From assembly GCA_030693235.1 (NCBI GenBank), contig JAUYBE010000006.1:71189-135188 (forward strand): a stretch of 64,000 nt of DNA, given 5' to 3'. The notes under the pieces are model-generated. The model was not told the DNA's origin and did no database searches. It saw only the letters and a list, made by a program, of their open reading frames with translations. The position numbers and the translations under genes were made by a program. The stretch is from a bacterium. GTDB lineage: Bacteria; Patescibacteriota; Minisyncoccia; UBA6257; UBA9933. Shown here piece after piece: positions 496-47,660 of the stretch (position 1 is the first letter of the stretch; each line of letters opens with the position of its first letter).

Positions 496-524
496 ACCGT
501 CCCGCTTCAGCGGGACGGTTTTTA
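496..524 (+). terminator. Rho-independent terminator
   Basis: Stem accgtcccgc / gcgggacggt with loop ttca, followed by a TTTTT tract. Confidence 0.7.
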
Positions 525-6894: not shown

Positions 6895-7027
6895 ACGGTT
6901 TGAACCCAGCTCGCGTATCACTTTAATTGGCGAACAGCCAAACGCTTGGGACCTTCTTCAGCCCCGCGCTGTGATGAGCCGACATCGAGGTGCCGAGCGA
7001 GATCGTCGATAAGAACTCTCGGATCTC

Positions 7028-7063
<36 letters not shown>

Positions 7064-8998: not shown

Positions 8999-9186
8999 CT
9001 TGTGCGAAGCACAAGGTGGCGCGCTTTTAACACTCGGTTTCCCTTTGCCTCCGCCCCGTAGGACTTAGACAAACGATTTATATAAACTCGTTGGCTCATT
9101 CTTCAATAGGCACACGGTCGTCCTTGCGGACTTCCGTTCCTTGTAGACATATGGTTTCAGATTCTATTTCATCGGCCTTGCCGGCC

Positions 9187-9225
<39 letters not shown>

Positions 9226-17272: not shown

Positions 17273-17355
17273 TAATCAGGTTTTAGTTTTTAGTTTTTAG
17301 GTTTTAGATAATTTTTTTCTAACACCTAACACCTAACACCTAACACCTAAAAACT

Positions 17356-18282: not shown

Positions 18283-18399
18283 ATATAAAAATTATTCTAA
18301 TTAGTCTAATTTCTAATTATTCTAAAACCTGGGCATTAGGGTTTAGGGTTTATTTAGGTAAATTAGAATAATTAGGTTAATTAGAGTAATTTATAAAGC

Positions 18400-19089
18400 G
18401 TGATTCAAGATCTAAATAAATTAGAGCAGAAACTCGGAACACAATTTAAAAATAAGGATTTTCTCAAGGAGGCCATTACTCATCGTTCTTATCTTAACGA
18501 AAATCCTTCTTGGGGCGTGCCCCATAATGAGCGCTTAGAATTTTTAGGAGACGCGGTTTTGGAATTGGCGGTAACGGAAAATCTTTTTAACCAGTTTCCG
18601 GATTTTTCCGAAGGACAATTGACGAGTTTGCGGGCGGCTTTGGTGAATTATCAAACAATGGCTAATGCGGCTCGCAATATAGATCTAGGAAATTTTATTT
18701 TATTGTCGCGAGGCGAAGCCAAGGATATCGGCCGGGCCCGGGAAGTGATTTTGGCCAACGCGATGGAGGCGTTAATTGGCGCGGTTTATTTGGACGCCGG
18801 ATACGCAAAGACAAAAGAATTAGTGGAAAAATTCGTTATTAATCTTTATTTGGAGCAGATTATCAAGAACAATCTTTATAAAGATCCAAAAAGTCATCTT
18901 CAGGAAATTGCTCAGGAAAAATTGAAACTGACTCCGACTTATCAATTGCTTGAAGAATGGGGTCCGGATCATAAGAAAATATTTAAGATGGGAGTTTTTT
19001 TTGGAGATAAATTAATTGCCCAAGGCGAGGGCTATTCCAAACAAGAGGCGGAAATCGAAGCGGCGAGGAACGCTCTGAAGAGTTTTTAG
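18400..19089 (+). CDS. rnc: Ribonuclease III (GTG start)
   Basis: RNase III signature ERLEFLGDAVLEL and a C-terminal dsRBD (QE...P.Y......GP.H...F). Confidence 0.9.
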   Translation: MIQDLNKLEQKLGTQFKNKDFLKEAITHRSYLNENPSWGVPHNERLEFLGDAVLELAVTENLFNQFPDFSEGQLTSLRAALVNYQTMANAARNIDLGNFILLSRGEAKDIGRAREVILANAMEALIGAVYLDAGYAKTKELVEKFVINLYLEQIIKNNLYKDPKSHLQEIAQEKLKLTPTYQLLEEWGPDHKKIFKMGVFFGDKLIAQGEGYSKQEAEIEAARNALKSF

Positions 19090-19159
19090 GTTTTAGTTTT
19101 TAGGTTTTAGATGAATTTTTTTCTAACACCCAACACCCAACACCTGACACCTAAATATT

Positions 19160-22126: not shown

Positions 22127-22861
22127 ATGAAGTTTGATATCATCACAATTTTCCCTGATATTTTTTCCGCCAAGGGCGGATCTTATTTAAACGAGTCAAT
22201 TTTAAAGCGCGCGCGGGCCAAAAAATTAATTCAAATTAAAATCCATAATTTACGGGATTTTGCCGTTGGCAGCAGACTTATGCAGACTGAACGCGGACTT
22301 ACGCAGAAAAATGGATATCGTAAAGTAGATGATAAACCTTACGGTGGGGGACCGGGAATGGTGCTCAAACTTGAACCGCTCGTAAAAGCGGTTTCAAGTT
22401 TGAAGTCAAAAGTCAAAAGTCAAAGGTCAAAGGTTATAATATTCACGCCGGCGGGAAAACAGTTTGACAATAAAATTGCAGGGCAGTTGGCAAAAAATTA
22501 CAATAATTTAATTTTAATTTGCGGCCGCTATGAAGGCATTGACGCTCGCTTAATGCCGGTTCTTAAAACTTTAAAACTTTCAACTTTAGAACTTTCTGTT
22601 GGTCCCTATGTTTTAACCGGAGGTGAATTGGCGTCAATGGTTTTAATAGACGCGGTTTCGCGGCAAATTCCCGGCGTTCTTGGCAAAGAAGAATCGCTTG
22701 AGGAAAAACGTTTCGGTATTGGCGCGCCGGCTTATACCCGGCCGGAAACGTTTGTTTATGGGAATAAGAAATATAAAGTCCCGAAAGTTTTACTTTCCGG
22801 CAATCATAAAAAAATAGAAGATTGGAGAAGGAAGAAATCCCTTGAGATTCTTACAAGTTAG
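22127..22861 (+). CDS. trmD: tRNA (guanine37-N1)-methyltransferase TrmD, with in-frame repeat insertions
   Basis: Sequence FDIITIFPDIF...ICGRYEGIDARL...LTGGELASMVLIDAVSR matches TrmD. Extra segments RLMQTERGLTQKNG and KSKVKSQRSKV coincide with DNA repeats. Confidence 0.85.
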   Translation: MKFDIITIFPDIFSAKGGSYLNESILKRARAKKLIQIKIHNLRDFAVGSRLMQTERGLTQKNGYRKVDDKPYGGGPGMVLKLEPLVKAVSSLKSKVKSQRSKVIIFTPAGKQFDNKIAGQLAKNYNNLILICGRYEGIDARLMPVLKTLKLSTLELSVGPYVLTGGELASMVLIDAVSRQIPGVLGKEESLEEKRFGIGAPAYTRPETFVYGNKKYKVPKVLLSGNHKKIEDWRRKKSLEILTS

Positions 22862-22880: not shown

Positions 22881-24137
<1,257 letters not shown>

Positions 24138-24378: not shown

Positions 24379-24928
24379 AAAACCCCAAACCCTAAACTCT
24401 TACGACTATTGTCGGTGTTAAAGCGCTCTAACCGATTAGAGCGGTCGAGCTAACTCGACCGCTCTCCGCTATTGCGCTTAATACATCTATAATGCGCCTA
24501 AAAAGTTTAGTTGATTAATTGTAAATCAGCGGATTTTAACAGCTCGCCTGTTTTTATGAGCTGAGCCGTTAAAAAACCAATTTGAGATTGCTTCGCTTCG
24601 TTCGCAATGACAAAACGACAGTCGTCATTGTGAACCCCGCTAAGCGGGGCGCGGCAATCTTTATAGATTGCTTCGCCTTCGGCTCGCAATGACAGAATTG
24701 GATTGCCGCCATCTATAACGCGACAAAGTAGTAAAGCAAATAAAATAGTAAAGCGAATAGTAAATGAAAATCATTACAACATAGCGGTAGAGATTGCCGC
24801 GCTCCCTTCGGTCGCTCGCAATGACATCTCGGCTCGCAATGACAAAAGCATCAATCAGTATATGCGATAAGATTGCTTGGCATTAAGCTATTGACGATGG
24901 CAATAAAATTTGATATTTTTATTAAATT

Positions 24929-31626: not shown

Positions 31627-31770
31627 CAAGAAAAATACATAGATTATTATAAATAATAATCCGCGGACAACAGGCATTTAAGACCTGTCGAGGATGGCGA
31701 TTTTTGTCTGCGGCATTCTGCCGTATTTTTGTTACTAAAACCTAACACCTAAAACCTATAACCTAACTTT

Positions 31771-33560: not shown

Positions 33561-33653
33561 GTTAAAAGTTCGTAAAGTTCGTAAAGTTTATAAAGTCCGT
33601 AAAATTTAAAAAATTCAACTTTATAACTTTCAACTTTATAACTTTACAAACTG

Positions 33654-34613
33654 ATGCATAAGCCTGTTCTTTTAAAAGAAGTTATTGAAATTTTAAATCC
33701 ACAGTCCGGAGAATTTTTTATTGATGGAACATTGGGCAGTGGCGGGCACGCGGTTGAAATTATTAAAAAAATTTCGCCGAACGGAATATTTTTGGGAGTT
33801 GATTGGGATAAGGATGTAATAGAGAATTTCAAATCAAACCTAAAACCTAAAAGCTATAACCTAAAAGCTATTAGGTTGGTTCACGGCAATTACGCGGATT
33901 TGCCGGAAATTTTGTCTGCCTACGGCAGATCTCCCGAAGGGAGAAAAAAATACAAATTGCCGAAAGCCGACGGATTGCTCATTGATTTGGGATTTTCTTC
34001 CGAGCAGTTGGAGAAATCGGGCAGGGGATTCAGTTTTTTAAGAGATGAACCGCTGGATATGAGATATGACACGAAAGTTGAAAGTTTAACCGCGGCGGAA
34101 GCGGTAAACAGTTTCAACGAAAAAGATTTGGCGGATATTTTTTGGAAATACGGCGAAGAAAGATTTTCCCGAAGAATCGCCAAAAAGATTGTTGAAGAAA
34201 GGAAGAAAAAAAGAATTTTAATAACATTTGATTTAGTGGAAGTAATCAAAAGAGCTGTACCGAAAAGTTATGAAAAAGGCAGAATTCACCCCGCCACTCG
34301 CGTTTTTCAAGCCCTGCGGATTTATGTCAATGACGAATTGGGCAATTTGGAAAAATTATTAAAAAATCTGGAGAAAATTATAAAACCTAAAGGTCGAGTC
34401 GCTATAATTTCATTTCATTCATTGGAAGATCGCTTGGTTAAAAACTATTTTCGGGAGATGGCGAAACCTGCCCGCATTGCTACGCAAAGCGTTGCAGGCG
34501 GGAAAGGAATGGCGGAAATTTTAACCAAGAAACCGATAACGGCGACGCTGGAGGAAATTAGAAGCAATCCAAGGTCGCGATCGGCGAAAATGAGAGCAAT
34601 AAAACTTCTATGA
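33654..34613 (+). CDS. rsmH: 16S rRNA (cytosine1402-N4)-methyltransferase RsmH (MraW), with three in-frame repeat insertions
   Basis: Sequence HKPVLLKEVIE...FIDGTLGSGGHA...DLGFSSEQL...ISFHSLEDRLVK matches RsmH. Confidence 0.9.
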   Translation: MHKPVLLKEVIEILNPQSGEFFIDGTLGSGGHAVEIIKKISPNGIFLGVDWDKDVIENFKSNLKPKSYNLKAIRLVHGNYADLPEILSAYGRSPEGRKKYKLPKADGLLIDLGFSSEQLEKSGRGFSFLRDEPLDMRYDTKVESLTAAEAVNSFNEKDLADIFWKYGEERFSRRIAKKIVEERKKKRILITFDLVEVIKRAVPKSYEKGRIHPATRVFQALRIYVNDELGNLEKLLKNLEKIIKPKGRVAIISFHSLEDRLVKNYFREMAKPARIATQSVAGGKGMAEILTKKPITATLEEIRSNPRSRSAKMRAIKLL

Positions 34614-34915
34614 CCATTATTCAATTAAATAAAAACAATCACAAGAAAAACTTTTTGATTTCAATTTTAATGATGGTTTCGGTTGTTATGGCTGTTTTTG
34701 GAATATTTATTTATAATCAATTGGTGAGTTTTCGGCACGAAGTAAAAAAACAGGAAAATAATATTCAGCAAGCCGAAGTTCAGAACGCCGAACTGAAAAA
34801 TAATCTTTACAGTATTCTAAACGAAAAAAACATTGAATCGTTGATTAATCAGCAATCGTTAATTTTGGAAAAAAATCCGAACTACGTAAAAACCGCTAAA
34901 CTGACGCTAAATTAA
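34610..34915 (+). CDS. FtsL-like small bitopic membrane protein (cell division)
   Basis: Position between rsmH and ftsI. Single TM followed by a coiled-coil. Confidence 0.55.
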   Translation: MTIIQLNKNNHKKNFLISILMMVSVVMAVFGIFIYNQLVSFRHEVKKQENNIQQAEVQNAELKNNLYSILNEKNIESLINQQSLILEKNPNYVKTAKLTLN

Positions 34916-34936
34916 GCGCCAAACTAACGCTAAAAC

Positions 34937-36547
34937 ATGAAATGGAGAATTACAAGTTTATTTTTTCTTTTTGGAATTTTATATTTATCTTTAATTTTTA
35001 ACATTTATCGTCTTCAAATTGAAAAAGGAGATTTTTATTTAGCAAGAGCGGAGTTTTTAAGGCGATTAAGCGGCGTTTTTCAAACGCCGAGAGGCGCTAT
35101 CTATCTTACCGACAGGAATAATAATTCTAATATTGCCGCTTTCAATAAAGATTATCCGGTAATTTACGCCGTGCCCAAGGAAATTCAGGAAAATAACAAT
35201 AGCAATAACAATAACAATGACAATAACAATACGCGGAATTACGCGGAAAAATTAAGTACGATTCTTAATGTTTCGGTTGAAGAGCTTGAAAAAAAATTCA
35301 ACAAACCCAACGATGAGTATGAGATTTTAATTCAAAAAGCCGGCGTCGAACAGGTTGAAAAAGTGAAAAATCTCAATCTAAAAGGAATATATATAGACAG
35401 CCAGCTTTTGCGTTTTTATCCTTTCGGCGGTTTGGCTTCTCATTTGTTGGGATTCACCGCGAACGGCGATGAAGGCGGAGGCCGTTACGGCGCGGAGCTC
35501 TATTTTGATAAATCGCTTAATAATGGAGAAAATCTGGTTTTAACCATTGACCGCGTTATTCAAGGACAGGCAGAGGAAATTTTAAAAAATCTCATTGACC
35601 GTTATCAGGCGGTTGGCGGAACGGTTATTGTTCAGGAACCGAAAACCGGAAAAATTTTAGCGATGGGAAGTTTTCCGAATTTTGACCCCAATGATTATTC
35701 AAAATTTAAAGTGGAAAATTTTCTTAATCCGGCGGTTCAGTTGGTTTACGAGCCGGGTTCGGTTTTTAAAGTAATCACTATGGCGGCCGGCATAGACAGC
35801 GGAAAAATTACTCCGGAAACGACTTACATCGACACCGGCTCGGTTACTTTTAACGGCATGACGATAAAAAATTGGGATTTGAAAGCTCATGGCCAGCAGA
35901 CAATGACCGGCGTGATTGAACAGTCTATCAATACCGGCGCGGTTTTTGCCCAGCGGAAAATCGGCCAGGATATTTTTTATAATTATTTGATAAAATTCGG
36001 TTTTAACGAGTCGACAAACATTGTTTTGCCCGGCGAGGTTAGAGGAAAAATTAATAATCTTAAACAAGGGAAGGATATTGATTTTGCCACTGCTTCTTTC
36101 GGCCAAGGCGTTTCGGTAACGCCGATTGAATTAATCAGCGCGATTTCCGCCATTGCCAACGACGGCGTTCTGATGAAACCGATTATTTCAGGAAGTGAAA
36201 AATCGCAAGTTGTCAGACGGGTAATTTCCTCTGAAACTTCCAAAAAAGTCGCTCAAATGATGGTTTCCGCGGTTGATAAAAACAAAATCGCGGTAATTTC
36301 CAATTATTCAATCGCCGGAAAAACCGGAACCGCTTTTGTGCCGGATTTCGGGAAAAACGGTTATACTGATGAAGTGATTAATACTTATATGGGTTTTGCT
36401 CCGGCTTTTGATCCGAAATTCGTGATTTTGATAAAATTAGATAAACCAAAGGGCAGTCCCTTGGCTGGCCAGACAGTGGTGCCGGCTTTCCGCGAACTGG
36501 CGCAATTTATTTTAAACTACTATAATATAGCGCCGGATAGATTATAA
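34937..36547 (+). CDS. ftsI: Penicillin-binding protein / peptidoglycan D,D-transpeptidase FtsI
   Basis: N-terminal TM. Transpeptidase motifs SVFK (SxxK), SNY? and KTGT. dcw cluster context. Confidence 0.8.
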   Translation: MKWRITSLFFLFGILYLSLIFNIYRLQIEKGDFYLARAEFLRRLSGVFQTPRGAIYLTDRNNNSNIAAFNKDYPVIYAVPKEIQENNNSNNNNNDNNNTRNYAEKLSTILNVSVEELEKKFNKPNDEYEILIQKAGVEQVEKVKNLNLKGIYIDSQLLRFYPFGGLASHLLGFTANGDEGGGRYGAELYFDKSLNNGENLVLTIDRVIQGQAEEILKNLIDRYQAVGGTVIVQEPKTGKILAMGSFPNFDPNDYSKFKVENFLNPAVQLVYEPGSVFKVITMAAGIDSGKITPETTYIDTGSVTFNGMTIKNWDLKAHGQQTMTGVIEQSINTGAVFAQRKIGQDIFYNYLIKFGFNESTNIVLPGEVRGKINNLKQGKDIDFATASFGQGVSVTPIELISAISAIANDGVLMKPIISGSEKSQVVRRVISSETSKKVAQMMVSAVDKNKIAVISNYSIAGKTGTAFVPDFGKNGYTDEVINTYMGFAPAFDPKFVILIKLDKPKGSPLAGQTVVPAFRELAQFILNYYNIAPDRL

Positions 36548-36647
36548 TCATTATTTTACGGTCATTGCGAGGAGCGAAGCGACGAAGCAATCTCTATGAA
36601 TCAATAAGATTGCTTCACTGCGTTCGCAATGACAAGGCCACAGCATT

Positions 36648-38015
36648 ATGAAACATCTTTTATTGAAAATTTTACAATTAATTTTAAAGCAATTAGCTAA
36701 GCTGACGATTTGGCGTTTTCAGCCGCGGGTTATCGCCATTACTGGCAGTGTCGGGAAAACTTCCGCCAAAGAGGCGATTTACGCGGTTTTATCCGCCTCG
36801 GGCGGAAAAAATCATCGTCGGGTGAGAAAATCCGAGGGCAACTTAAATAATGAATTGGGTGTGCCGCTTGCCATAATCGGAGAATGGAAAGAAGAGGAAT
36901 TAAAATTGGTTAGTCGCGATACGCCGTCCGGCAAGAAAAAAATTAGAAAATTATTATTTTGGCTAAAAGTAATTTTTTATGGCTTAGCTCAGTCCCTTTT
37001 TCTTAAAAAATCCGTTTATCCTGAAATTTTAATATTAGAATACGCGGCAGACCGGCCAGGAGATATTAAAGAGCTTTTGGAAATCGCCAAGCCCTATATC
37101 GGAATTATTACAGCTATTGGCGAAATACCCGTACATATAGAATTTTTCAGCGGTCCGGAAGCGATAGTTCGAGAAAAGGCGAGAGTCGTTGAAAATTTAT
37201 CGGCAAATGGTTTTGCCGTATTGAATTTTGACAACGAAGCAATAATAAATATGAAAGAACGAACCCGCGCCAAAATTATCACTTTCGGTTTTAATGAAGG
37301 CGCGGATGTGAAAATCAGCGGTTTTGATTATGCGCAGACCAACGCAAACAGTCAGCGTGAGTCCGCGTTAAGTCCGCGTGAGTCAGCGTGGCGCGAAGCG
37401 CCAATGGGCGTTTCTTTTAAGATTGAATACGCCGGCAGTTTTGTGCCGGTAGTTTTAAAGAATGTTTTCGGGAAAGCTCAGGCTTATGCCGCTGCGGTTG
37501 CCGCCTGCGTTGGTTTGATTTTTGATTTAAATTTGGTGGAAATTTCCGAGGCGCTTTCAATAAATTACCGGCCGGCCAAAGGAAGAATGAATTTATTAAA
37601 AGGAATCAAGGATACTTATATTATCAACGACGCCTACAACGCTTCGCCGATTTCAATGGAAGAAGCTTTAACAACGCTCGGCGATTTGTCGGCTGAAAGA
37701 AAAATCGCGGTTCTGGGAGATATGCTGGAATTGGGAAAATATTCGGTTGAAGCTCACGAATCAATCGGCCGATTAGCCGGGAAAATAGTTGATGTTTTAA
37801 TTACCGTCGGTCCGCGGGCGAAATTTATCGCCGAATCAGCGGAAGCCGTTGGGCTGGACAAAAACAAAATTTTGAGTTTTGATACGACGACGGAAGCTTG
37901 TCGGGCGGTTCAGGACTTGATTAAAAAAGGCGATTTGATTTTAATAAAAGCGTCAAGAGCAATAGGATTGGAAGAGATAGTGGAGGAAATTAAAGAAATT
38001 GCCGCTTTCGTCTAG
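36648..38015 (+). CDS. murF: Mur ligase family protein, probably UDP-MurNAc-tripeptide--D-Ala-D-Ala ligase MurF, with an in-frame repeat insertion
   Basis: P-loop AITGSVGKTSAKE. Mur ligase middle and C-domains present. dcw cluster context. Confidence 0.7.
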   Translation: MKHLLLKILQLILKQLAKLTIWRFQPRVIAITGSVGKTSAKEAIYAVLSASGGKNHRRVRKSEGNLNNELGVPLAIIGEWKEEELKLVSRDTPSGKKKIRKLLFWLKVIFYGLAQSLFLKKSVYPEILILEYAADRPGDIKELLEIAKPYIGIITAIGEIPVHIEFFSGPEAIVREKARVVENLSANGFAVLNFDNEAIINMKERTRAKIITFGFNEGADVKISGFDYAQTNANSQRESALSPRESAWREAPMGVSFKIEYAGSFVPVVLKNVFGKAQAYAAAVAACVGLIFDLNLVEISEALSINYRPAKGRMNLLKGIKDTYIINDAYNASPISMEEALTTLGDLSAERKIAVLGDMLELGKYSVEAHESIGRLAGKIVDVLITVGPRAKFIAESAEAVGLDKNKILSFDTTTEACRAVQDLIKKGDLILIKASRAIGLEEIVEEIKEIAAFV

Positions 38016-38902: not shown

Positions 38903-39579
38903 TTTCTGCGCTCTAATGCAGAAGTAAGTGTTTCTTCGTCGGCGAATTCTATTTCTCCGCCGGTCGGAATGCCGCGTCCCAAGCGAGTGATTTTTTTGGC
39001 GAAAGGCGAAAGTTCTTTGGCAATCACTGAAAAATTGAGATCGCCGTATGTGGTGGGGTTGAAAGCGATAATAATTTCTTCGGCTTGCCCGAATTCTTTC
39101 TTAATCCGATTTTTAAGATGGTTCAGCCGAAGTTTCTGGCTGCTTTCCAAAAATCCGGTTTTGGCGAATTCGCCCAAAATCAAATAATGGCCTTTAAACT
39201 TCTTGGTCCGTTCCAAAGAAATCAAATCAGTTTCTTTTTCAATGATGGCAATGATATCTTTTTGACGGTTTTGGTCTAAACAAATATTACAAAGATTAAT
39301 TCCGCGTTTATCCGCGTTCAGTCTGCGCGAGTCTGCGTCGTATACGAAAAAACATTCAGAACAGATTTTTAAATATTTCAAATCAGAAATCGCTTTGGCG
39401 GTTTCTTCAATTCGGTTCCGACCGCTGTTGATTAATTTAAAAGCCAAGCGAGTCGCTTGACGAATGCCGATGCCCGGCAAAGTTGAGAAAATTTGAATAA
39501 ATGTTTTAATTGGATCAGGTAGCATATAATAATAATAATGAATATTCGCAATTTTGTCATCATTGCGCACATAGACCAC
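38899..39579 (-). CDS. recR: Recombination protein RecR, with an in-frame repeat insertion
   Basis: HhH sequence LPGIGIRQATRLAF. C4 zinc finger C..C...C. Toprim domain with a DxD-like pattern. Confidence 0.85.
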   Translation of the reverse strand: MVYVRNDDKIANIHYYYYMLPDPIKTFIQIFSTLPGIGIRQATRLAFKLINSGRNRIEETAKAISDLKYLKICSECFFVYDADSRRLNADKRGINLCNICLDQNRQKDIIAIIEKETDLISLERTKKFKGHYLILGEFAKTGFLESSQKLRLNHLKNRIKKEFGQAEEIIIAFNPTTYGDLNFSVIAKELSPFAKKITRLGRGIPTGGEIEFADEETLTSALERRN

Positions 39580-41355
39580 GGGAAATCGACTTTAGCCGAC
39601 CGGTTTTTGGAATTAACCGGTGCCGTTGAATTGCGTCAGATGAAAGCGCAATATCTCGACCAATTGGAGCTTGAAAGAGAGCGGGGGATTACGATAAAAA
39701 TGGCGCCTGTGCGAATGACCTATACCCTAAACGCTATACCCTATACCCTAAACTTAATTGATACGCCAGGACATAGTGATTTTTCTTACGAAGTTTCTCG
39801 GGCTTTGGCCGCGGTTGAGGGCGCGATTTTATTGGTGGACGCCGTTCAGGGAGTTCAGGCGCAAACTTTGGCTAATTTGGAAAACGCCAAAAAAGTCGGT
39901 TTGACCGTTATCGGCGCGGTTAATAAAATCGACGTCGCTTCTCCCGAGCAGATTAAAAATTCAATAAACGAATTGACGCGGCTTTTGAATGTCGGTCCCG
40001 AAGAAATTTTTAAAATTTCCGGCAAAACCGGAGAAGGTGTGGAGGAATTATTAGAAGCAATAATAAGAGAAATTCCTCCACCGAAATTTCCGCGTGAGTC
40101 CGCGTTAAGTCCGCGAGATTTCGCGATCAATGCGCGAGCATTGATATTTGATTCCCTCTACGACGAGCATAAAGGCGTTATCGCTTTTGTTCGGGTTTTT
40201 AACGGCGAATATAAAGCCGGCGACGAAACAAAACTTGTCGTTGCCAATGAAAAATTCAAAATCAAAGAAGTCGGCGTTTTTTCTCCGCAATTAAAATCAA
40301 CGGATAAATTATCAGCCGGCGAAATCGGTTATATCGCCACTGGCATTAAAAATCCAGATAAATTAAAAATCGGCGACACTGTTGGAGAAAGCGCTTTGCT
40401 TGGCTATCAAGAACCCAAGTCGGTGGTTTTCGTTTCTCTTTATCCGGACGAAGAATCGCAGTACGATGATTTAAAAATCGGCCTTCAAAAATTGAAACTT
40501 AATGACTCCAGTTTGACTTTTTCTCCGGACACCAACGAAGTTTTGGGCAGGGGATTTAAATGCGGTTTTTTGGGAAAACTTCATTTTGAAATTGCCGCCG
40601 AAAGATTGGAAAGGGAATTTAACATAAAAACAGTTTCAACGTTTCCGTCTGTCGCTTATAAAATAATCACGAAACAAGGAGAAAGAATTATCGAAAACGC
40701 CGATGAATTGCCAGCCGATTATTTGGAAATTTTTCAGCCGATGATAAAAATTGAAATTATCGCGCCGTTGAAATATTTAAGCAATGTTTTGCGTCTTAAA
40801 GAATCTTTCAAAATGGAAAATATCAAAACCGAAAATTTGCCTGCCCGCATTGCTACGCAAAGCGTTGCGGGCGGGGAAGACAAAATTTTAATAAGATTGA
40901 ATATGCCGCTTTCAAGTTTGATCGCCGATTTTGACGACCGGCTGAAATCAATTTCCGAAGGAATGGTTTCTTTCAGTTATGAACTGGGCGATTATCAAAA
41001 AGCCGAATTGGAAAAAGTGGAAATTTTGGTCGCCGGTCTTCCCGTGCCCGGTCTGACCAGGCTTATTTATAAAGATGAATTAGAAATAAAGCCCCGGCAA
41101 TTGCTCCAGAAACTAAAAGAATTTTTGCCGCGCCAGCAATTTGTTCAAGCTCTTCAAGCGGTGGCCGGAAGCAAAATTATCGCTCGCGAAACGATTCCGG
41201 CGATGAAAAAAGACGTGACGGGCTATTTATACGGCGGCGACCGGACCAGAAAAATGAAGCTTTGGCAGAAACAAAAGAAAGGCAAGAAAAAACTGTTGCA
41301 AAGGACTTCCGGAGTCAAAATCCCTGTAAAAATCTTCAAGGATTTGTTAAAGTAA
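39538..41355 (+). CDS. lepA: Elongation factor 4 (LepA), with at least three in-frame repeat insertions
   Basis: Sequence IRNFVIIAHIDHGKSTLADR...DTPGHSDF...NKID plus the LepA C-terminal domain. Confidence 0.9.
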   Translation: MNIRNFVIIAHIDHGKSTLADRFLELTGAVELRQMKAQYLDQLELERERGITIKMAPVRMTYTLNAIPYTLNLIDTPGHSDFSYEVSRALAAVEGAILLVDAVQGVQAQTLANLENAKKVGLTVIGAVNKIDVASPEQIKNSINELTRLLNVGPEEIFKISGKTGEGVEELLEAIIREIPPPKFPRESALSPRDFAINARALIFDSLYDEHKGVIAFVRVFNGEYKAGDETKLVVANEKFKIKEVGVFSPQLKSTDKLSAGEIGYIATGIKNPDKLKIGDTVGESALLGYQEPKSVVFVSLYPDEESQYDDLKIGLQKLKLNDSSLTFSPDTNEVLGRGFKCGFLGKLHFEIAAERLEREFNIKTVSTFPSVAYKIITKQGERIIENADELPADYLEIFQPMIKIEIIAPLKYLSNVLRLKESFKMENIKTENLPARIATQSVAGGEDKILIRLNMPLSSLIADFDDRLKSISEGMVSFSYELGDYQKAELEKVEILVAGLPVPGLTRLIYKDELEIKPRQLLQKLKEFLPRQQFVQALQAVAGSKIIARETIPAMKKDVTGYLYGGDRTRKMKLWQKQKKGKKKLLQRTSGVKIPVKIFKDLLK

Positions 41356-42203: not shown

Positions 42204-43208
42204 ATGAAAAAAATATTGAACAAAGACAATAGAGGCGAGATTGTTATTTATAAGACCGCAAAAAATGAGGTTAGATTGGATGTGCGATTAGAAGCGGAGA
42301 CGGTATGGCTGACACAAAAGCAAATGGCTTTTCTTTTTGATAAGGACATAAGAACAGTAAACGAGCATATTAAAAATATTTTTATAGAAGGAGAATTAAA
42401 GAAAAATTCAGTTGTCCGGAATTTCCGGATAACTGCCCCTGATGGAAAAAAATATGATACGAATTTTTATAATCTTGATGTTATTATTTCTATTGGTTAT
42501 AGAATTAAATCCCGAAGAGGCACTCAATTCCGCATCTGGGCGACTAAAACATTAAAAAACCACCTGATCAAAGGCTACACTATCAATGAAAAGCGACTCC
42601 TGGAAGCGCGGGGAAAATTCCGCGAACTTCAAACTGCCATCGCTTTTTTACGAGAGAAATCTAAAAAGGAATTATTACAGGGACAAGAAGGAGAAATTTT
42701 AAGCCTTTTGGCGAATTACGCCAAAACTCTAACTTTATTGGAAGAATATGACAAAGGAAAACTAAAAGATGGAAAAGGCGCGAGAACTAAATTTATTTTG
42801 ACTTACGAAAATTGCTTGCGGGTGGTGGGAGAATTAAAAAAAGAATTGATTATTAAAAAAGAAGCGGGGAACCTTTTTGGCGCCTTGCGAGACAATAGTT
42901 TCGAAGGAATTATTAAAGGACTTTATCAATCTTTTGGCGGAAGACAATTATATTCGACAATCGAAGACAAAGCGTCTCATATACTCTATTTGATTATTAA
43001 GGACCATCCTTTTTCCGACGGCAATAAACGCTCGGGAGCGTTTTTGTTCGTCTATTTTTTGGATAAGGCAAATTATTTACATCGCGAAAACGGGGAGAGA
43101 AAAATCAATGACAACGCCTTAACAGCGCTGGCGCTTTTAATTGCCGAAAGCGATCCAAAAGAAAAAGAAGTGATGATAAAAATAATTAAAAATTTAATCG
43201 CAAAATAA
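42204..43208 (+). CDS. RhuM-family N-domain fused to a Fic/Doc domain (putative AMPylation/toxin-type protein)
   Basis: N-terminus VWLTQKQMAFLF...NLDVIISIGYRIKSRRGTQFRIWATKTLK is RhuM-like. The C-terminal HPFSDGNKRSGAF is the Fic motif HPFx[DE]GNxR. Confidence 0.8.
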   Translation: MKKILNKDNRGEIVIYKTAKNEVRLDVRLEAETVWLTQKQMAFLFDKDIRTVNEHIKNIFIEGELKKNSVVRNFRITAPDGKKYDTNFYNLDVIISIGYRIKSRRGTQFRIWATKTLKNHLIKGYTINEKRLLEARGKFRELQTAIAFLREKSKKELLQGQEGEILSLLANYAKTLTLLEEYDKGKLKDGKGARTKFILTYENCLRVVGELKKELIIKKEAGNLFGALRDNSFEGIIKGLYQSFGGRQLYSTIEDKASHILYLIIKDHPFSDGNKRSGAFLFVYFLDKANYLHRENGERKINDNALTALALLIAESDPKEKEVMIKIIKNLIAK

Positions 43209-43505: not shown

Positions 43506-44174
43506 ATGAAAATAAAGGATTTACCAAAAATTGAGCGGCCGCGAGAAAAACTAATCGCGAAAGGAGCCGAGAATTTGAAGGACTCGGAACTTTTGGCGAT
43601 TCTCTTACGGACCGGTAAAACCGGGAAAAATGTGATTGAAATCGCTTCCCAGATTTTAACTAAGCATTCCAAGAAACGGCTTTTGCAAATGACCTATGAG
43701 GATTTATTGAAAATCGGCGGAATTGATTCCGCAAAAGCCACGACACTTCTTGCCGCTTTTGAGCTATCCAAGCGCGCGATTGAAGTTAATGACACGAATT
43801 TACCGACCATCGTTACCTCTAAAGATGTCGTGGCTCAATTGACCGAACTGCGCCACAACAAAAAAGAGCATTTTATCGCTCTGTACCTAAACGCCAGAAA
43901 TCAGCTGGTGCATAAAGAAACGATTTCAATAGGAACTCTGAATGCTAATCTCGTCCATCCGCGCGAAGTTTTCGAGCCGGCCATTAGGCATTCGGCCGCC
44001 AATATTATAGTTGCGCATAATCATCCTTCCGGAGATCCGAAACCGTCAGAAGACGATTTGGAGATTACAAAGCGATTAACGGAGGCAGGCAAGATAATGG
44101 GCGTTGAACTTTTGGATCATGTCATTATCGCGACAAACAGCGTTTTTAGTTTTAAGGATGAAAAGTTGTTATGA
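43506..44174 (+). CDS. radC: RadC-family JAB/MPN domain protein
   Basis: N-terminal HhH-like region. The C-terminal JAMM-like motif HNHPSGDPKPSEDD is diagnostic for RadC/UPF0758. Confidence 0.85.
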   Translation: MKIKDLPKIERPREKLIAKGAENLKDSELLAILLRTGKTGKNVIEIASQILTKHSKKRLLQMTYEDLLKIGGIDSAKATTLLAAFELSKRAIEVNDTNLPTIVTSKDVVAQLTELRHNKKEHFIALYLNARNQLVHKETISIGTLNANLVHPREVFEPAIRHSAANIIVAHNHPSGDPKPSEDDLEITKRLTEAGKIMGVELLDHVIIATNSVFSFKDEKLL

Positions 44175-45742
44175 GCACCAATATAAAAGATTTGGAAAAT
44201 AGATTATGGGAGGCGGCGGATCATATGCGCGCTAATTCACCGTTGCGCCTCAACGAATTTGCCGAGCCGGTCTTGGGTTTGATTTTCCTTAAGTTCGCGG
44301 GAGTAAGACACAATAAAGTCGCCGAAGAAATAGCCGAGGAAAGAAAAAAGAAAACCAAATCCTATGGCAGGGCTTCGGTTTCTCGCGAGCGGCCGGTATC
44401 ATCTGCCGATTATCATGCGCGTGGTGTATTGTTTGTTCCGGAAAAAGCTCGATTTTCATATCTCATAGAGTTGCCGGAAGGAGCGGACATGGGCAAGGCC
44501 GTTAATGACGCGATGAAAGAGATTGAAGCGGAAAATAAAGAGCTTGCCGGTATCTTGCCGAAAACATTTCAAAAACTTGATAATCGATCCATAATCGCGC
44601 TTCTAAAAAATTTCAATCAGATTCCAGACAATATTGAGGGCGATGCGTTCGGGAGAATCTACGAATACTTTCTTGGCAAATTCGCGTTAGCGGACGGCTC
44701 GCGCGGAGGCGAATTTTTTACGCCGACAAGTATAGTTAAACTCATCGTAGAAATCATTGAGCCGTATCAAGGCAGAATTTACGATCCGGCTTGCGGCTCC
44801 GGCGGGATGTTTGTGCAGTCGCACGAATTTGTAAAGCGGCACCTTGAGAACGGACAGAAGACAAGAGCTTCGCGTAAGATTGCGATTTACGGCCAAGAAA
44901 AAACAGACCAGACCGTTCGCATCGCAAAAATGAACCTTGCGATTCACGGCCTTTCTGGAGACATTCGCGAAGGTAATACCTATTACGAGGATCGCCATAA
45001 GAGTTTGGGCAAATTTGATTTCACGATGGCCAATCCTCCTTTTAATGTGAGCGGAATTGATTATGAACGGATAAAAGATGACCCTCGTTTTCCGTATGGC
45101 CTACCTAAGTCGGGAAATAAAGGAACAGACAATGGTAATTATCTTTGGATACAAATATTTTTAAGTTCGTTGAATAAAAATGGACGGACTGGTTTTGTGA
45201 TGTCTAATGCGGCAGGTGACGCTGGGCACAGAGAAAAAGAAATTCGTCAAAAATTAATTGAAGATGGGGTTGTGGACGTAATGGTCGCTGTTGGCCCTAA
45301 TATGTTTTACAATGTTCCACTTTCGGTAACCTTGTGGTTTTTGGACAGAGGCAAAAATAAGACAAATAGAAAGGATAAAATTCTTTTTATTGACGCGCGG
45401 AATATTTTTACTCCAATCCCAGACGACAGAGTAAAAAGATATTGGACCGATGAGCAAATAGAGCAAATCGCAAGCATTGTCCGAAGTTATCGCGGCGAGA
45501 ACGGAAAGAAATATCAAAATGTTAAGGGGCTTTGCAAAATAGCAACGATTGATGAAGTTAAAAAAGCCGGCTACTCACTCAACCCCGGCCGTTATGTTGG
45601 CGCTACCGACAACGGAAATGGAGACGACGGAAATTTCAAAGAAAAGGTTGAAAACCTTCACGGCGAATTTAAGGAACTAACCGACGACGCGCACAAACTG
45701 GAGAAAAACATTTTTGATAATTTGAAGAAATTAGATATATGA
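44171..45742 (+). CDS. hsdM: Type I restriction-modification system, DNA methyltransferase subunit M
   Basis: N6-adenine MTase motifs: motif I DPACGSGGM, motif IV NPPFN, and the HsdM N-terminal domain. The start overlaps the radC stop (ATGA). Confidence 0.9.
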   Translation: MSTNIKDLENRLWEAADHMRANSPLRLNEFAEPVLGLIFLKFAGVRHNKVAEEIAEERKKKTKSYGRASVSRERPVSSADYHARGVLFVPEKARFSYLIELPEGADMGKAVNDAMKEIEAENKELAGILPKTFQKLDNRSIIALLKNFNQIPDNIEGDAFGRIYEYFLGKFALADGSRGGEFFTPTSIVKLIVEIIEPYQGRIYDPACGSGGMFVQSHEFVKRHLENGQKTRASRKIAIYGQEKTDQTVRIAKMNLAIHGLSGDIREGNTYYEDRHKSLGKFDFTMANPPFNVSGIDYERIKDDPRFPYGLPKSGNKGTDNGNYLWIQIFLSSLNKNGRTGFVMSNAAGDAGHREKEIRQKLIEDGVVDVMVAVGPNMFYNVPLSVTLWFLDRGKNKTNRKDKILFIDARNIFTPIPDDRVKRYWTDEQIEQIASIVRSYRGENGKKYQNVKGLCKIATIDEVKKAGYSLNPGRYVGATDNGNGDDGNFKEKVENLHGEFKELTDDAHKLEKNIFDNLKKLDI

Positions 45743-46404
45743 AGAAGAAAGAAATAAAGACATATACTCCCGATGAGGTACGACAAAAAATCTTGTTGTA
45801 TTTGGGAGAGTGCCGTAGAAAGGCGCGCGGCCTGGATTCTTTGATGGCTTCCAGTTCGGACGTAAAAAAAGCGATGGCTAAAGAAGATATTAGCCAAAAC
45901 GATGCGGTGCAAAATTTGGACTACCTCGTTCAACATGGTTGGGTGGACGAAAAGATTATAAAGCGTCCATATAAAACCCCAAAAGGTTTTGAGGTACCAA
46001 ACGAAAAACATCTGTTCGGTCTGTCAGAGATAGGTCTTAAGTACAACGAAGGAGAATCCGAATTTGACCGCACCAGCGTCTTTTCAGGTATCAATATTAA
46101 TACCATTGGTGGAGTAACGGTGGTGGGATCGAATAATGTTGTCAGAAACGAATTCGTCGATGTACTTCGCGCTTTTAATCAGTTAGAGGGTGTTGTGAAA
46201 ATATCTGACAAGCTTTCCGAAGAACAAAAGCTTAATGTACAGGCGGACATCCAAACGATTAAAAATCAGTTGTCCAAATCGCAACCAGATAAAACTATTG
46301 TGCAAAAAGTAATGGAGAGTATTTCGTTCGTCGGTTCACTGCCTGGAGCCGTCGAAGTTTTTAAGGTTGCGACACAAGCCGTGCAAAGGATTTTAGGTTT
46401 ATGA
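45739..46404 (+). CDS. Hypothetical protein X (221 aa), embedded between hsdM and hsdS with overlapping stop/start codons on both sides
   Basis: ORF track entry. Its ATG overlaps the hsdM TGA, and its TGA overlaps the hsdS ATG. No recognisable motif; the N-terminus could be winged-helix-like. Confidence 0.6.
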   Translation: MKKKEIKTYTPDEVRQKILLYLGECRRKARGLDSLMASSSDVKKAMAKEDISQNDAVQNLDYLVQHGWVDEKIIKRPYKTPKGFEVPNEKHLFGLSEIGLKYNEGESEFDRTSVFSGININTIGGVTVVGSNNVVRNEFVDVLRAFNQLEGVVKISDKLSEEQKLNVQADIQTIKNQLSKSQPDKTIVQKVMESISFVGSLPGAVEVFKVATQAVQRILGL

Positions 46405-47660
46405 ACACGCAAATCAAAACAACTTGGCGGAAGGTGAAATTAGGAGATGTTGCAAATGTCTTGCCAGGTTTTGCATTTAAGAGTTCGGAGTTTAAAAAGG
46501 ACGGCGACATACCAGTTATTAAGATCAAAAATATTACTGACGATCTAAATGTTTCTATGGAAAACGGGGAGTATCTTGATGAATCTGCTTTGAATGAAAA
46601 AACCAAAAAATATTTGATTAGCAATAGCGACATATTAGTTGCGATGACGGGGGCGACGGCGGGGAAAGTTGGCAAGTTTCGATCAAATAAAAAAGCGTTA
46701 CTGAACCAGCGTGTCGCAAAAATCAGCCCCAAAAATATTGATGCGAATTTTTTATGGATTCTGTTGGGCAATAAAGATGCAATCAATCTTTTATATCGAC
46801 TTGCCGATGGAGCCGCACAACCGAACATGAGTGGTGGACAGATAGAAAATCTTGAGTTCAGAATACCTGCACGGATTGAGGATCAAAAACAAATCGCCGA
46901 TGTTCTTTCCGCATACGACGATCTGATCGAAAACAACACGAAGCGGATTAAGATTTTGGAACAAATCGCGCAGGCGATTTATAAGGAGTGGTTTGTTTCT
47001 CCAGTGAATGGTGGCAATCTGCCAAATGGATGGAAAAATGTCGCTCTCCGAGATGCTATTGAATCCTATATAGGTGGTGGATGGGGCAAAGAAGAACCTG
47101 ATGATAATTATCCAAGTCCCGCATATGTTATCCGCGGTACGGATATACCAAACGCGGCAATGGGTAACATCTCTACTTGCCCACTTAGATATCACAAGCC
47201 TTCGAATTTGCGCGTCAGGGTTTTGCAAGGTGGTGATTTAGTGTTTGAGGTGTCGGGCGGTAGCAAGGGACAACCGGTAGGGCGATCTCTATTAATAACA
47301 ACCAATCTTCTTGGTCAATTTAAGCAAAATGTAATTTGCGCAAGTTTTTGTAAATTGATCCGGCCAAATCGAAGCAAGATTTCGCCATTCCAACTATATG
47401 AACAGATACTGAGCTGGTACGAAAATGGAGTTATTGAAAAATATCAGGTTCAATCTACGGGCATAAGCAACTTTAAGTTTGAATCGTTTATTGAGGAGGA
47501 GAAAATTACATTACCGCCAGATGGGATAAGAGAAAAATTTGATCATTCAATATCCCCTTTGTTTGATGAAATTTATTCACTGGGAAATCAAAATCAAAAC
47601 CTCCGCCAAGCCCGAGATTTGCTTTTGCCGAAGTTAGTAAGTGGGGAAATAAAAGTATGA
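46401..47660 (+). CDS. hsdS: Type I restriction-modification system, specificity subunit S (two target-recognition domains)
   Basis: Duplicated TRD architecture with conserved central and C-terminal coiled-coil spacers (LLPKLVSGEI-type ending). Sits between hsdM and hsdR. Confidence 0.85.
   Translation: MNTQIKTTWRKVKLGDVANVLPGFAFKSSEFKKDGDIPVIKIKNITDDLNVSMENGEYLDESALNEKTKKYLISNSDILVAMTGATAGKVGKFRSNKKALLNQRVAKISPKNIDANFLWILLGNKDAINLLYRLADGAAQPNMSGGQIENLEFRIPARIEDQKQIADVLSAYDDLIENNTKRIKILEQIAQAIYKEWFVSPVNGGNLPNGWKNVALRDAIESYIGGGWGKEEPDDNYPSPAYVIRGTDIPNAAMGNISTCPLRYHKPSNLRVRVLQGGDLVFEVSGGSKGQPVGRSLLITTNLLGQFKQNVICASFCKLIRPNRSKISPFQLYEQILSWYENGVIEKYQVQSTGISNFKFESFIEEEKITLPPDGIREKFDHSISPLFDEIYSLGNQNQNLRQARDLLLPKLVSGEIKV

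Follow-up and report, generated by a model that had tools for sequence, protein, structure and literature searches.

Tandem-unit repeats lying in frame in six Patescibacteria genes are probably the terminal arms of a small mobile-element family

Short units built on the heptamer GTCCGCG recur in tandem within protein-coding genes of a Patescibacteria (CPR) metagenome-assembled genome, of which a single stretch of 64 kb from a 228-kb contig, referred to here as the window, was analyzed. How did the same short DNA come to lie in several unrelated genes, and what kind of sequence is it? Replication slippage, selection for the encoded peptide, a role in RNA, and binding by a host factor were each weighed against a mobile origin. 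Our answer is that the eight copies in the window are probably the terminal arms of a small mobile-element family that is common in Patescibacteria.

RESULTS

The window holds eight copies of a fixed four-unit arm

The heptamer GTCCGCG occurs 15 times in the window compared to 4.9 ± 2.4 times in shuffled sequences, and 15 was reached in 0 of 100 shuffles. Pairs of the core motif (TC[ACT]GCG or CGC[AGT]GA) lying 10 to 11 nt apart on the same strand were found 17 times, whereas 0.13 were expected and 100 Markov-1 simulations gave at most one. All 17 fell within the seven sites at which the initial annotation had placed one repeat family, and across the 64 kb, tandem units of the core motif were confined to seven clusters. 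In addition, an nhmmer profile made from 65 arms, all from other genomes and none from the window, returned exactly eight matches, at the same seven sites (E values from 3.7e-13 to 2e-3; Table 1). Seven of the eight span nearly the whole profile (model positions 1-2 to 34-39); the exception is the ftsI copy, which spans half of it. The murF and lepA copies have one 20-mer, GAGTCCGCGTTAAGTCCGCG, exactly in common, where none was expected. The view that this is one family was thus upheld, since every site is present and the outside profile finds eight copies. The copies, which might have aligned no better than chance, align far better than that.

However, the units do not form open-ended tandem arrays, as had been supposed. 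The copies are instead fixed arms, 38 nt long, in which four units stand at 10-11-10 intervals (consensus tTCnGCGTnaGTCnGCGTnaAGTCnGCGTnagTCnGCG; unit core GTCnGCG). This spacing and a single consensus are common to 69 unique arms. The unit of the window subfamily is AGTCCGCG and that of locus L124 is AATCTGCG, so the subfamilies are genome specific. One hairpin, in pgk, and six solo or partial arms make up the window content.

Table 1. Arms and adjoining palindromes in the window
Feature	Gene	Position	Strand	Evidence and reading
Weak flank palindrome TGCC-GTT-GGCA	trmD	22261-22271		sequence
Four-unit arm	trmD	22272..22308	-	nhmmer E 2.6e-9; antisense reading RLMQTERGLTQ
Half arm, two units (ACGCGGAAT x2)	ftsI	35229..35248	-	nhmmer E 1.9e-3, model positions 2-21
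Two degenerate R-orientation units, GCGCAGAC and ACGCAAAC	murF	37332..37349	+	direct sequence reading
Four-unit F arm, 10-11-10	murF	37351..37388	+	nhmmer E 5.2e-12; reads QRESALSPRESA
Flank palindrome GGCGC-GAA-GCGCC, adjoining the arm	murF	37390..37402	+	holds GCGAAGC mini-hairpin motif
Four-unit arm	recR (minus-strand gene)	39299..39337	+	nhmmer E 1.3e-8; antisense reading ADSRRLNADKRG
TCGTA/TACGA, 3' of the arm	recR	39338-39347		sequence
F arm, fourth unit degenerate	lepA	40087..40126	+	nhmmer E 1.4e-9 (match 40087-40120); reads FPRESALSPRDFA
Flank palindrome ATCAATGC-GCGA-GCATTGAT	lepA	40126..40145	+	sequence
Four-unit arm	pgk	53456..53494	-	nhmmer E 1.6e-5; antisense reading ADLRGQIRGLTR
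Flank palindrome TGCCGCC-TTTCA-GGCGGCA	pgk	53738..53756	+	left arm = native codons ET-TAA after GGGET
Complete nuclease-less element	pgk	53758..53837	+	R arm 53758-53796 (nhmmer, -, E 2e-3), then directly F arm 53800-53837 (nhmmer, +, E 3.7e-13); reads RNYAEKHAELRGKSLRQSASSLRKSA

All eight copies lie in frame in their host genes (TrmD, FtsI, MurF, RecR, LepA, and PGK), and the frames and the Pfam-confirmed identities agree with the initial annotation, including the antisense reading in recR. The arm can indeed be read on either strand, but where different phases had been proposed, the three sense copies (murF, lepA, and pgk) share one. The other two phases of the murF and lepA arms contain TGA or TAA; one alternative phase of the pgk sense arm is open, yet unused. 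The inserted loops are hydrophilic, as had been noted, but not Lys rich: Lys accounts for only 3% of the residues, and the peptides are rich in Arg (19%), Ala (13%), Leu, and Ser (11%).

Ordinary microsatellite-like repeats, arising by local replication slippage under weak repair and filtered for frame by selection, would be one candidate source of such units. The window is rich in short tandem arrays with periods of 6 to 11, in open reading frames, spacers, and 23S rRNA, and some of these resemble local duplications of native codons, for instance TYTLNAIPYTLNL in lepA at 39719-39750. However, slippage predicts variable copy numbers and locally derived units, whereas the arms keep to 10-11-10 and never exceed four units. 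Nor does it predict a single consensus across distant CPR lineages, arms in murF and lepA that have 24 identical bases in common and are both missing from the nearest relative, or arms that flank a conserved nuclease gene (see below). We consider slippage a very unlikely origin of the arms.

The 10- to 11-nt period equals the helical repeat, and the units are short and conserved. Both traits would suit signals in the genome to which a host factor binds, with no mobile element involved, such as DNA-uptake, nucleoid, or helical-turn-phased regulator sites. CPR bacteria are believed to rely on DNA uptake, which also speaks for such a signal. However, uptake sequences occur as single copies at about one per kb, whereas the arms of the window are clustered and number only eight over 64 kb, and close relatives have none (zero units in 11 kb of L127 and in 7.6 kb of L125). 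The units also differ between genomes and between nuclease subfamilies, and the arms form inverted pairs around a nuclease gene. A signal sequence of this kind is extremely improbable.

The copies are loop insertions that relatives lack

Comparison with orthologs, which the initial annotation had suggested, showed that close relatives do without the insertions, which are missing at 70 to 79% identity. Aligned to solved homologues, the copies proved to be loop insertions: 14 amino acids in TrmD (compared to 3ky7), 22 in MurF (3zl8), 12 in RecR (3vdp), and 9 in LepA (5imq). The murF insertion is 51 nt long and is missing in L125 to L128, whose MurF proteins are 70 to 77% identical. In L124 it is present, built of AATCTGCG-type units, and two R units equivalent to the degenerate pair in the window stand at the matching place; this pair is the remnant of the partner arm. 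The recR arm lies in the zinc-finger loop between the CxxC pairs. It is missing in L126 and L127, and L124 has an array of opposite orientation at that site. The lepA arm, between the G domain and domain II, is missing in L124, L126, and L127. The ftsI half arm, which reads TRNYAE, is directly preceded by an Asn-rich (AATAAC)x6.7 array at 35192-35231 (detected with TRF).

In pgk, the minus-strand arm is common to P0002 and P0004, and the sequence at this place in other PGKs is unrelated. The complete element is missing in the closest PGK (P0002/L005), which has a heptamer array in its place. As a whole, the PGK of the window is 459 amino acids long compared to about 380 in relatives. An AlphaFold model of it (15-sequence alignment) had several inserted segments of low confidence; with a mean pLDDT of 61.6, it could not be used to locate the insertions in the fold.

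Certain positions are occupied repeatedly. The lepA site before YxLNLIDTPGH is filled in L027, L070, L105, L124, and L098, and the leuS site before VFTTRPDT in L039 and L077; depending on the genome, these two sites and the STGGG site of pgk hold full elements, hairpins, or other repeats. The element is also found within 23S, 16S, and RNase P RNA genes, and one RNase P RNA gene has two copies, about 95% identical, at two positions. No clean junction between an empty and a filled site was found, native residues being replaced as well as added. Comparison of filled and empty sites in murF, lepA, and recR revealed no direct target-site duplication. Instead, one or both flanks were duplicated in inverted orientation.

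Palindromes beside the arms copy the native flank

Short perfect palindromes adjoin 21 of 60 arms (35%) compared to 38 of 1,200 control positions (3.2%), and 15 of 22 complete elements have one on at least one side, compared to 3.9% of controls. The distal half of the palindrome consists of native codons, and synonymous differences in these codons are mirrored in the copy. A good example is lepA, where the distal half, GCATTGAT, corresponds to the native codons for ALI in the conserved motif ALIFDS and the proximal half is their inverted copy, encoding the extra residues INAR; in L124, L126, and L127, the native ALIF codons are all that is present. Likewise, the pgk genes of L002 and L003 have differing palindromes at the same place, each derived from its own native codons. 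With native codons in its outer half, the palindrome is the target flank duplicated in inverted form, which points to repair through a hairpin or fold-back intermediate.

These palindromes bear on the idea that the inserted Arg/Ser/Ala-rich, disordered loops are themselves the selected product and have a cellular function. The tandem repeats of Borgs create disordered regions for which such a function has been proposed (PMC9879509). The idea gains from the in-frame position of every copy, from the hydrophilic peptides, and from the low confidence of the PGK model over several inserted segments. However, the same DNA, read on both strands, encodes the unrelated peptides ESALSPR, ADLRGQ, RNYAEK, and NADKRG. 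The same element is found in rRNA and RNase P RNA genes, close relatives do without the insertions, and the palindromes follow synonymous codon differences and not the peptide sequence. For all these reasons, conservation is at the level of the nucleic acid, and selection for the peptide is a highly doubtful explanation.

The same arms enclose GxxExxY nuclease genes in other Patescibacteria

In other Patescibacteria, the inverted pair of arms encloses a gene for a 125-amino-acid PD-(D/E)XK nuclease (TIGR04256 GxxExxY, PF13366). Six such genes (in L027, L035, L070, L077, L082, and L105), 56 to 69% identical to one another, are each preceded by an R arm and followed by an F arm. All six lie in frame in a host, namely, LeuRS, SecA, an unknown open reading frame, and three LepA genes, and the full in-frame elements, of about 500 nt, are free of stops. 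Fusions of LepA with PF13366 were seen in about 22 of 56 database relatives. Three stand-alone and three distant GxxExxY genes also have inverted arms of about four units, with other unit sequences. Pfam found only PF13366 between the host domains and no Hint/intein domain, and Rfam gave no match to an intron ribozyme at these inserts. The PDB contained no sequence relative of the nuclease, and the function of PF13366 is listed as unknown (PMC3424549).

In the window itself, neither Pfam nor tblastn with four GxxExxY queries found PF13366 in the 64 kb. Among about 50 open reading frames of the window, Pfam detected HNH, LAGLIDADG, type I restriction-modification, Shedu-like, RadC, and Fic domains and no transposase or reverse transcriptase.

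A single arm consensus is found in distant CPR lineages, and the family is apparently widespread in Patescibacteria. Exactly four units per arm were counted in 24 to 25 of 32 complete hairpins and more than four in none; these frequencies are not an unbiased census, because the loci were gathered by searching for the repeat itself. Matches in Streptomyces and similar high-GC genomes were perfect simple repeats and were set aside as unrelated. A phage source was also considered, and blastn with the pgk hairpin as query gave zero matches among 50,697 phage records. The 10 matches of a pattern scan in viral contigs were all uniform, iteron-like arrays without the 10-11-10 arm structure.

A role at the RNA level was also weighed: the arms and their hairpins might be processing or stability elements, intervening sequences cut out by RNase III like those of 23S rRNA, or sites of ribosome pausing between domains. 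The predicted hairpins are strong (-55.1 kcal/mol and z -7.3 for the pgk element), similar tandem-arm hairpins are found in 23S rRNA and operon spacers, and the element resides in rRNA and RNase P RNA genes. [quoted passage not shown] However, all copies in protein genes are in frame and free of stops, and excision would need neither. Across six PGK loci, the sense strand had no consistent advantage in folding energy. The central base of the unit is not complementary between the arms (24 Watson-Crick pairs compared to 32 expected), and with no such compensation the hairpin is therefore not obviously kept by selection. No Rfam family matched the arrays at gathering thresholds. A permissive search of 53700-53900 gave only an sX4 match, which was dismissed as being at chance level (E 0.45). 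An RNA role is unlikely as the explanation of the family.

DISCUSSION

[quoted passage not shown] The full element consists of an R arm, a gene of about 375 nt for the 125-amino-acid GxxExxY nuclease, and an inverted F arm. Within genes it is in frame over its whole length, and the host protein would carry its translation as an internal domain. When the nuclease gene is lost, an 85-nt hairpin would remain, made up of the R arm, a short A/T loop, and the F arm; when one arm is lost, a solo arm would remain. The survivors would be those insertions that keep the frame, are free of stops, and sit in tolerant surface loops beside conserved motifs. This may be why all copies look designed to be in frame, because only insertions of this kind survive. 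We infer that spread, whether by homing or by transposition, is driven by the nuclease, which would bind the four repeated units and act through a DNA break. The break may then be repaired by hairpin or fold-back synthesis, yielding an inverted duplicate of the flank. As for the copies in the window, they would be passive relics or would be mobilized in trans. Other models, namely, telomerase- or retron-like addition, diversity-generating retroelements, integron attC sites, and IS200/IS605-REP systems, were set aside, as they fit poorly with a fixed arm, a PD-(D/E)XK gene, and target-derived palindromes, and no supporting gene was seen for any of them.

A broader proposal is put forward tentatively, as one that could well be right but falls a little short of an even chance. 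It holds that GxxExxY (PF13366) proteins are the putative nucleases of a separate and so far undescribed class of mobile elements in prokaryotes, with subfamily-specific, four-unit inverted arms. Elements of this class would enter conserved sites in essential protein genes and in rRNA and RNase P RNA genes, be expressed unspliced within the host protein, duplicate their flanks in inverted orientation, and decay to hairpins and arrays. If so, most of the heptamer-to-undecamer arrays in the window would be relics of sister subfamilies.

The mobile origin of the arms, if correct, has several consequences. First, it would explain many odd short insertions in the housekeeping proteins, rRNAs, and RNase P RNA of Patescibacteria. 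Second, it would give the widespread family PF13366/TIGR04256, of unknown function, its first biological context; fusions such as those with LepA are currently annotated as "GxxExxY protein, partial." Third, it would represent a mobile element that survives in essential genes by being translated and not by being spliced, and a parallel to the RPEs of Rickettsia with a candidate driver nuclease attached. Fourth, the insertions inflate CPR marker-gene alignments and the phylogenies derived from them. Finally, the inverted flank duplication is a testable sign of unusual break repair in organisms with minimal repair. The element is apparently undescribed; the searchable literature offered nothing on this repeat or on the mobility of GxxExxY proteins and only the literature on RPEs.

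Comparison with known systems

Several known systems share part of this picture. Like the present copies, Borg repeats lie in open reading frames, never break the frame, are hydrophilic and probably disordered, and evolve fast (PMC9879509). However, Borg units within open reading frames are divisible by three, perfect, unique to their locus, and variable in number (PMC9879509), whereas the units here are 10 to 11 nt long, come four to an arm, are shared between loci and genomes, and form inverted pairs. The coding palindromes of Nematomorpha mitochondria are likewise inverted repeats in protein genes with both arms translated, but they are long, perfect, specific to their locus, and mitochondrial, with no shared family of units and no nuclease gene (PMC6649704). 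The Coxiella IVS is another small, selfish, open reading frame-bearing element in 23S rRNA (PMC4990558); the present one is found in both 23S and 16S rRNA genes. The Coxiella open reading frame encodes S23p and not a GxxExxY nuclease, the ends are not four tandem units, and the location is helix 45 of the 23S rRNA precursor, with no report of the element in protein genes.

Homing endonuclease genes, inteins, and group I introns resemble the element in occupying the same position in distant lineages and in carrying a small nuclease. Homing endonucleases of the PD-(D/E)XK type exist, for example, I-Ssp6803I. The occupied sites lie directly beside strongly conserved motifs in essential genes (LIDTPGH in LepA, VFTTRPDT in LeuRS, and STGGG in PGK). 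Unlike in these systems, the insert seems to be retained in the mature protein, and inteins and introns have neither inverted four-unit arms nor nuclease-less derivatives.

RNA genes, too, have been reported to contain RPEs, and we know of no autonomous partner gene identified for these elements. They were described by Ogata et al. (2000, 2002), as summarized in PMC10969869. They are short palindromic repeats dispersed in a reduced genome, in frame in unrelated housekeeping genes, translated, and thought to be tolerated in surface loops. The window likewise has eight in-frame copies in six genes and a complete hairpin in pgk. However, RPEs are about 100 to 150 bp long, with family-specific peptides and no internal tandem units, and are confined to Rickettsia, whereas the host here is a Patescibacteria MAG. 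The four 10- to 11-nt units, the link to a PD-(D/E)XK gene, and the inverted flank duplication also set the present element apart. Filing the window copies as RPEs was therefore rejected on the comparison of descriptions, the unit structure being unlike that of RPEs and the host being a member of the Patescibacteria.

MITEs and their parent elements differ in three ways: no direct target-site duplication was seen here, the internal gene encodes a 125-amino-acid PD-(D/E)XK protein and not a DDE, HUH, or recombinase transposase, and the full element, lying in frame, is translated as part of the host protein. The likeness lies in the architecture. As with MITEs, there is a multicopy family with genome-specific subfamilies, in which arm-loop-arm copies stand beside longer, gene-carrying copies with the same inverted arms (reviewed in PMC10969869). 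Here, the R and F arms are adjacent in the pgk hairpin and enclose the nuclease gene elsewhere.

GTCCGCG repeats of the window belong to one family of arms

The window has a G+C content of ~40% and carries nearly all of its genes on the plus strand; 5S rRNA, RNase P RNA, and 15 tRNA genes are also present. Relatives of its PGK are Patescibacteria (Paceibacterota and Wolfebacteria). GTCCGCG occurs 15 times, compared to 4.9 ± 2.4 times in shuffles, and one 20-mer is identical between murF and lepA. TC[ACT]GCG or CGC[AGT]GA cores spaced 10 to 11 nt apart on the same strand were seen 17 times (0.13 expected), and all 17 were located at the seven sites that the initial annotation had assigned to a single in-frame family: murF, lepA, recR, pgk (two sites), trmD, and ftsI. 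That assignment was borne out by a search profile of 65 arms (38-nt modules of four units) taken from other genomes only. The profile gave exactly eight matches in the window, all at these sites, with pgk 53758-53837 counted twice and the ftsI copy being a half arm.

The gene names were also correct (Pfam: Mur ligase, LepA, RecR, PGK, TrmD, and PBP transpeptidase), and every window copy lies in frame. The loops had been described as rich in Lys, Arg, Ser, and Ala; this is true of Arg, Ala, and Ser, together with Leu, but not of Lys (only 3%). The arms can be read on either strand, but the three in sense orientation (murF, lepA, and pgk) all use one phase. In murF and lepA, TGA or TAA occurs in each of the two remaining phases; for the sense arm of pgk, one alternative phase is open yet unused. 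The only complete hairpin is in pgk. Solo arms are found in lepA, recR, trmD, pgk, and murF, where two units of the partner arm remain. There is no PF13366 gene in the 64-kb window, and its eight arms are therefore nuclease-less.

The arm has a fixed architecture

One genome per GTDB species was scanned for three consecutive units. Matches came from many Patescibacteria and one Nanoarchaeota; matches in high-GC genomes were perfect repeats and unrelated. The 69 unique arms from low-GC loci have a spacing of 10-11-10 and the consensus tTCnGCGTnaGTCnGCGTnaAGTCnGCGTnagTCnGCG. Among 32 complete hairpins, there were exactly four R units in 24, exactly four F units in 25 (R and F being opposite orientations), and more than four in none. 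The repeat in these loci is a fixed arm, not an open-ended array. Replication slippage as the maker of the arrays is contradicted by the fixed number of units and by the shared consensus. R arm, A/T loop, and F arm always came in this order: of 60 F arms, 21 had R units upstream and none had them downstream. The central base of the units varies freely and shows no compensation between arms (24 Watson-Crick pairs, compared to 32 expected).

Copies are in-frame loop insertions with quick turnover

Compared to solved homologues, the arrays add 22, 9, 14, and 12 loop residues to MurF, LepA, TrmD, and RecR, respectively, those of RecR lying between the CxxC pairs. Orthologues without insertions were found among syntenic metagenome loci (70 to 79% identity). 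The 51-nt murF insertion was missing from four relatives and the recR insertion from two, and the lepA insertion, after IPPPK, was found in the window alone. The copies are lineage specific in their presence, and subfamilies are genome specific. For instance, one relative (L124) has the murF insertion with AATCTGCG-type units and the recR insertion in reversed orientation; it contains 28 units, compared to none in 11 kb of the nearest relative (L127). Window PGK is 459 aa long versus ~380 aa in relatives, with about four more in-frame insertions of other repeat or palindrome families besides its three decamer arms.

Arms flank predicted GxxExxY nuclease genes

Arm-bearing open frames in other genomes encode housekeeping proteins (Pfam): LepA (six cases), LeuRS, IleRS/ValRS-type synthetases, ThrRS, SecA, UvrA, TsaD, cysteine-desulfurase-type aminotransferases, ParB, and PPDK. 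Several have an internal PF13366 domain, identified as TIGR04256, "GxxExxY protein" (E value, 5e-34). A tblastn search across all collected loci found six arm-associated GxxExxY genes; all six were arm flanked and all six were in frame with the host, three of them in lepA at one common site. Their pairwise identity was 56 to 69%, with no grouping by host gene. PF13366 and an EF-Tu GTPase domain occur together in ~22 of 56 database relatives, which are LepA fragments, some annotated "GxxExxY protein, partial." The strict frame and the avoidance of stops over up to ~500 nt contradict RNA excision of the inserts. A role as uptake or regulatory signals is contradicted by the clustering of units, their absence from relatives, and the nuclease linkage.

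In three stand-alone genes, an array of about four tandem units immediately precedes the ATG, and inverted units overlap or follow the stop codon; distant paralogues in three loci (L035, L105, and L112) have an equal arrangement of inverted unit arrays. Each stand-alone or distant gene has its own unit: ACGCTGAT, ACACGAAT, CCGGAT-like, TCCGAAT, TACAAAT, or ACGAAT.

Inverted duplication of the target flank

Of 60 F arms, 21 had a perfect palindrome (stem of ≥6 bp) on their downstream side (offset, 0 to 8), compared to 38 of 1,200 control positions. Of 22 complete elements, 15 were bordered by at least one such palindrome (controls, 3.9%) and 6 by one at each end. Read on the strand of the F arm, many of the loops are GNA. 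The palindrome sequence varies from copy to copy. Its outer half, away from the element, consists of the gene's own codons, namely, those for ALI of ALIFDS in window lepA, for ET(T/V)(A/S) following GGGET in PGK, and for EV preceding FTTRP in LeuRS. The same holds for the ILNL codons of YILNLIDTPGH in four loci (L124, L098, L105, and L070), and there the copy reproduces synonymous differences. The duplication of the target flank is therefore an inverted one, unlike a direct target-site duplication. It suggests a hairpin or fold-back intermediate, or else ongoing correction of the palindrome.

RNA genes and reused sites

Genes for 23S rRNA, 16S rRNA, and RNase P RNA in other genomes contain the same decamer element as well. 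One RNase P RNA gene holds two ~95% identical copies, and the RNase P RNA of L027 is 639 nt long owing to inserted decamer hairpins. Selection on the inserted peptide is contradicted by these copies in RNA genes, by the reading of both strands, and by palindromes that track codons.

In other genomes, full GxxExxY elements or decamer hairpins occupy sites that correspond exactly to those of the heptamer arrays in window lepA and at leuS 58940-58982; the array at 59044-59078 lies farther downstream, ~60 nt from the leuS site. The lepA array, which leaves net length unchanged and gives TYTLNAIPYTLNL, appears to have overwritten native codons. The shared positions fit a turnover of several sister families at few permissive sites beside conserved motifs.

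Aminoacyl-tRNA synthetases of other Patescibacteria contain whole domains of foreign type in frame (NUDIX, His_Phos_1, Ser_hydrolase, and alpha/beta hydrolase), some near decamer arms. A second palindromic family of ~90 nt (GTCATTGCGAG..GAAGCAATCT..AGATTGCTTC..CTCGCAATGAC) has at least five copies in the window, some intergenic and two in frame, with peptides such as SLRGVPQSGTTKQS..EIASPSARNDT.

Features of the window and of comparison loci (L numbers)
Feature	Location	Strand	Remarks
In-frame arrays	3094-3175 (secA); 20620-20661, 20957-20990 (smc); 33836-33871 (rsmH); 34894-34934		units CAACCAA/GTCGTGG, AACGACC, AAAATAA, AAACCTA, CGCTAAACTAA; periods not divisible by three
HNH endonuclease ORF	3261-3845	minus	overlaps secA end
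LAGLIDADG endonuclease ORF	6315-6758	minus	between 5S and 23S rRNA (gap ~940 nt)
23S rRNA	6788-9735	minus	
~145-nt hairpin in 23S rRNA gene	8855-9000	minus	-47.6 kcal/mol, z -7.8; arms built of heptamers to nonamers in tandem (AATTTCT, ATCCCAAT, TTGGTCA, TTAGGTCAA)
Operon-spacer hairpins	17275-17355, 18285-18395, 19081-19144, 31735-31766, 33562-33650		z -4.6 to -6.5; ribosomal-protein and mraZ-rsmH operons; both arms tandem 7-9-nt repeats, with (TTTAGGG)n-like units in one
(AAAGTCA)x4, in frame	22403-22431 (trmD); 53348-53377 (pgk)		peptides KSKVKSQ, KVKCQKSKV; probably a sister repeat family; related array at the pgk position in PGK homologues P0005, P0007
Perfect (GA)14.5 run	22914-22942		near start of ORF 22881-24137 (Laminin_G_3 domain protein); possible slippage-prone frame switch
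~90-nt palindromic family	24580-24870, 36561-36630, 52869-52958 (pgk), 54932-54997 (RNase H ORF 54852-55346)		
Heptamer array CCTATAC	39719-39750 (lepA)		
Heptamer arrays GAATTAA and AATTTAG	58940-58982 / 59044-59078 (leuS)		
RhuM/Fic protein	42204-43208		
RadC	43506-44174		precedes type I operon
Type I restriction-modification operon	44171-51879		hsdM, unknown ORF, hsdS, hsdR
Shedu-like SduA_C protein	47657-48760		between hsdS and hsdR
Perfect 14-bp inverted repeat ATCCCGTTAGAAAT..ATTTCTAACGGGAT	53089-53137 (pgk)		around hairpin GTCCCGC-tcg-GCGGGAC; in frame (YPVRNSPARRDAISNG); missing from P0002, the most similar PGK found (75%, BLASTP)
RNase P RNA	55392-55695		reduced, because all 367 model positions are spanned in only 304 nt
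L077 LeuRS	R arm aa 262-275; nuclease 283-396; F arm 405-417		
L035 unknown ORF	R arm aa 361-373; nuclease 380-485; F arm 501-513		
L082 SecA	nuclease aa 209-322; F arm 331-343		R arm below nhmmer cutoff, four R-type units by eye
Stand-alone GxxExxY genes with arrays	L143, L144 (Omnitrophota), L145		L145 between gap and pgk
Synthetases with foreign domains	L079 (LeuRS aa 573-689); L049 and L083 (IleRS-type, aa ~475-662); L077 and L083		

Possible mechanism and known systems

From this arrangement, we infer that the predicted nuclease may recognize the four phased units and promote spread via a DNA break, which could be repaired by fold-back synthesis. In a genome that is ~90% coding, the survivors would be copies that preserve the frame, lack stops, and lie in loops. 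The window copies may be relics or may be mobilized in trans. Recurrence at identical conserved sites is homing-like, and the fact that the nuclease sequences do not group by host gene is transposition-like.

PF13366 is given as of unknown function (PMC3424549). In the open-access literature, we found neither this repeat nor GxxExxY mobility described; the only related match was work on Rickettsia palindromic elements. These elements and MITE/parent pairs (PMC10969869) are closest in behavior, site choice of the decamer element being homing-like. The rRNA copies recall the Coxiella 23S rRNA IVS, an ORF-bearing element (PMC4990558). The decamer element stands apart from all of these in its four-unit arm and PD-(D/E)XK gene, in the translation of the full element as a domain of the host protein, and in a flank duplication that is inverted, not direct.
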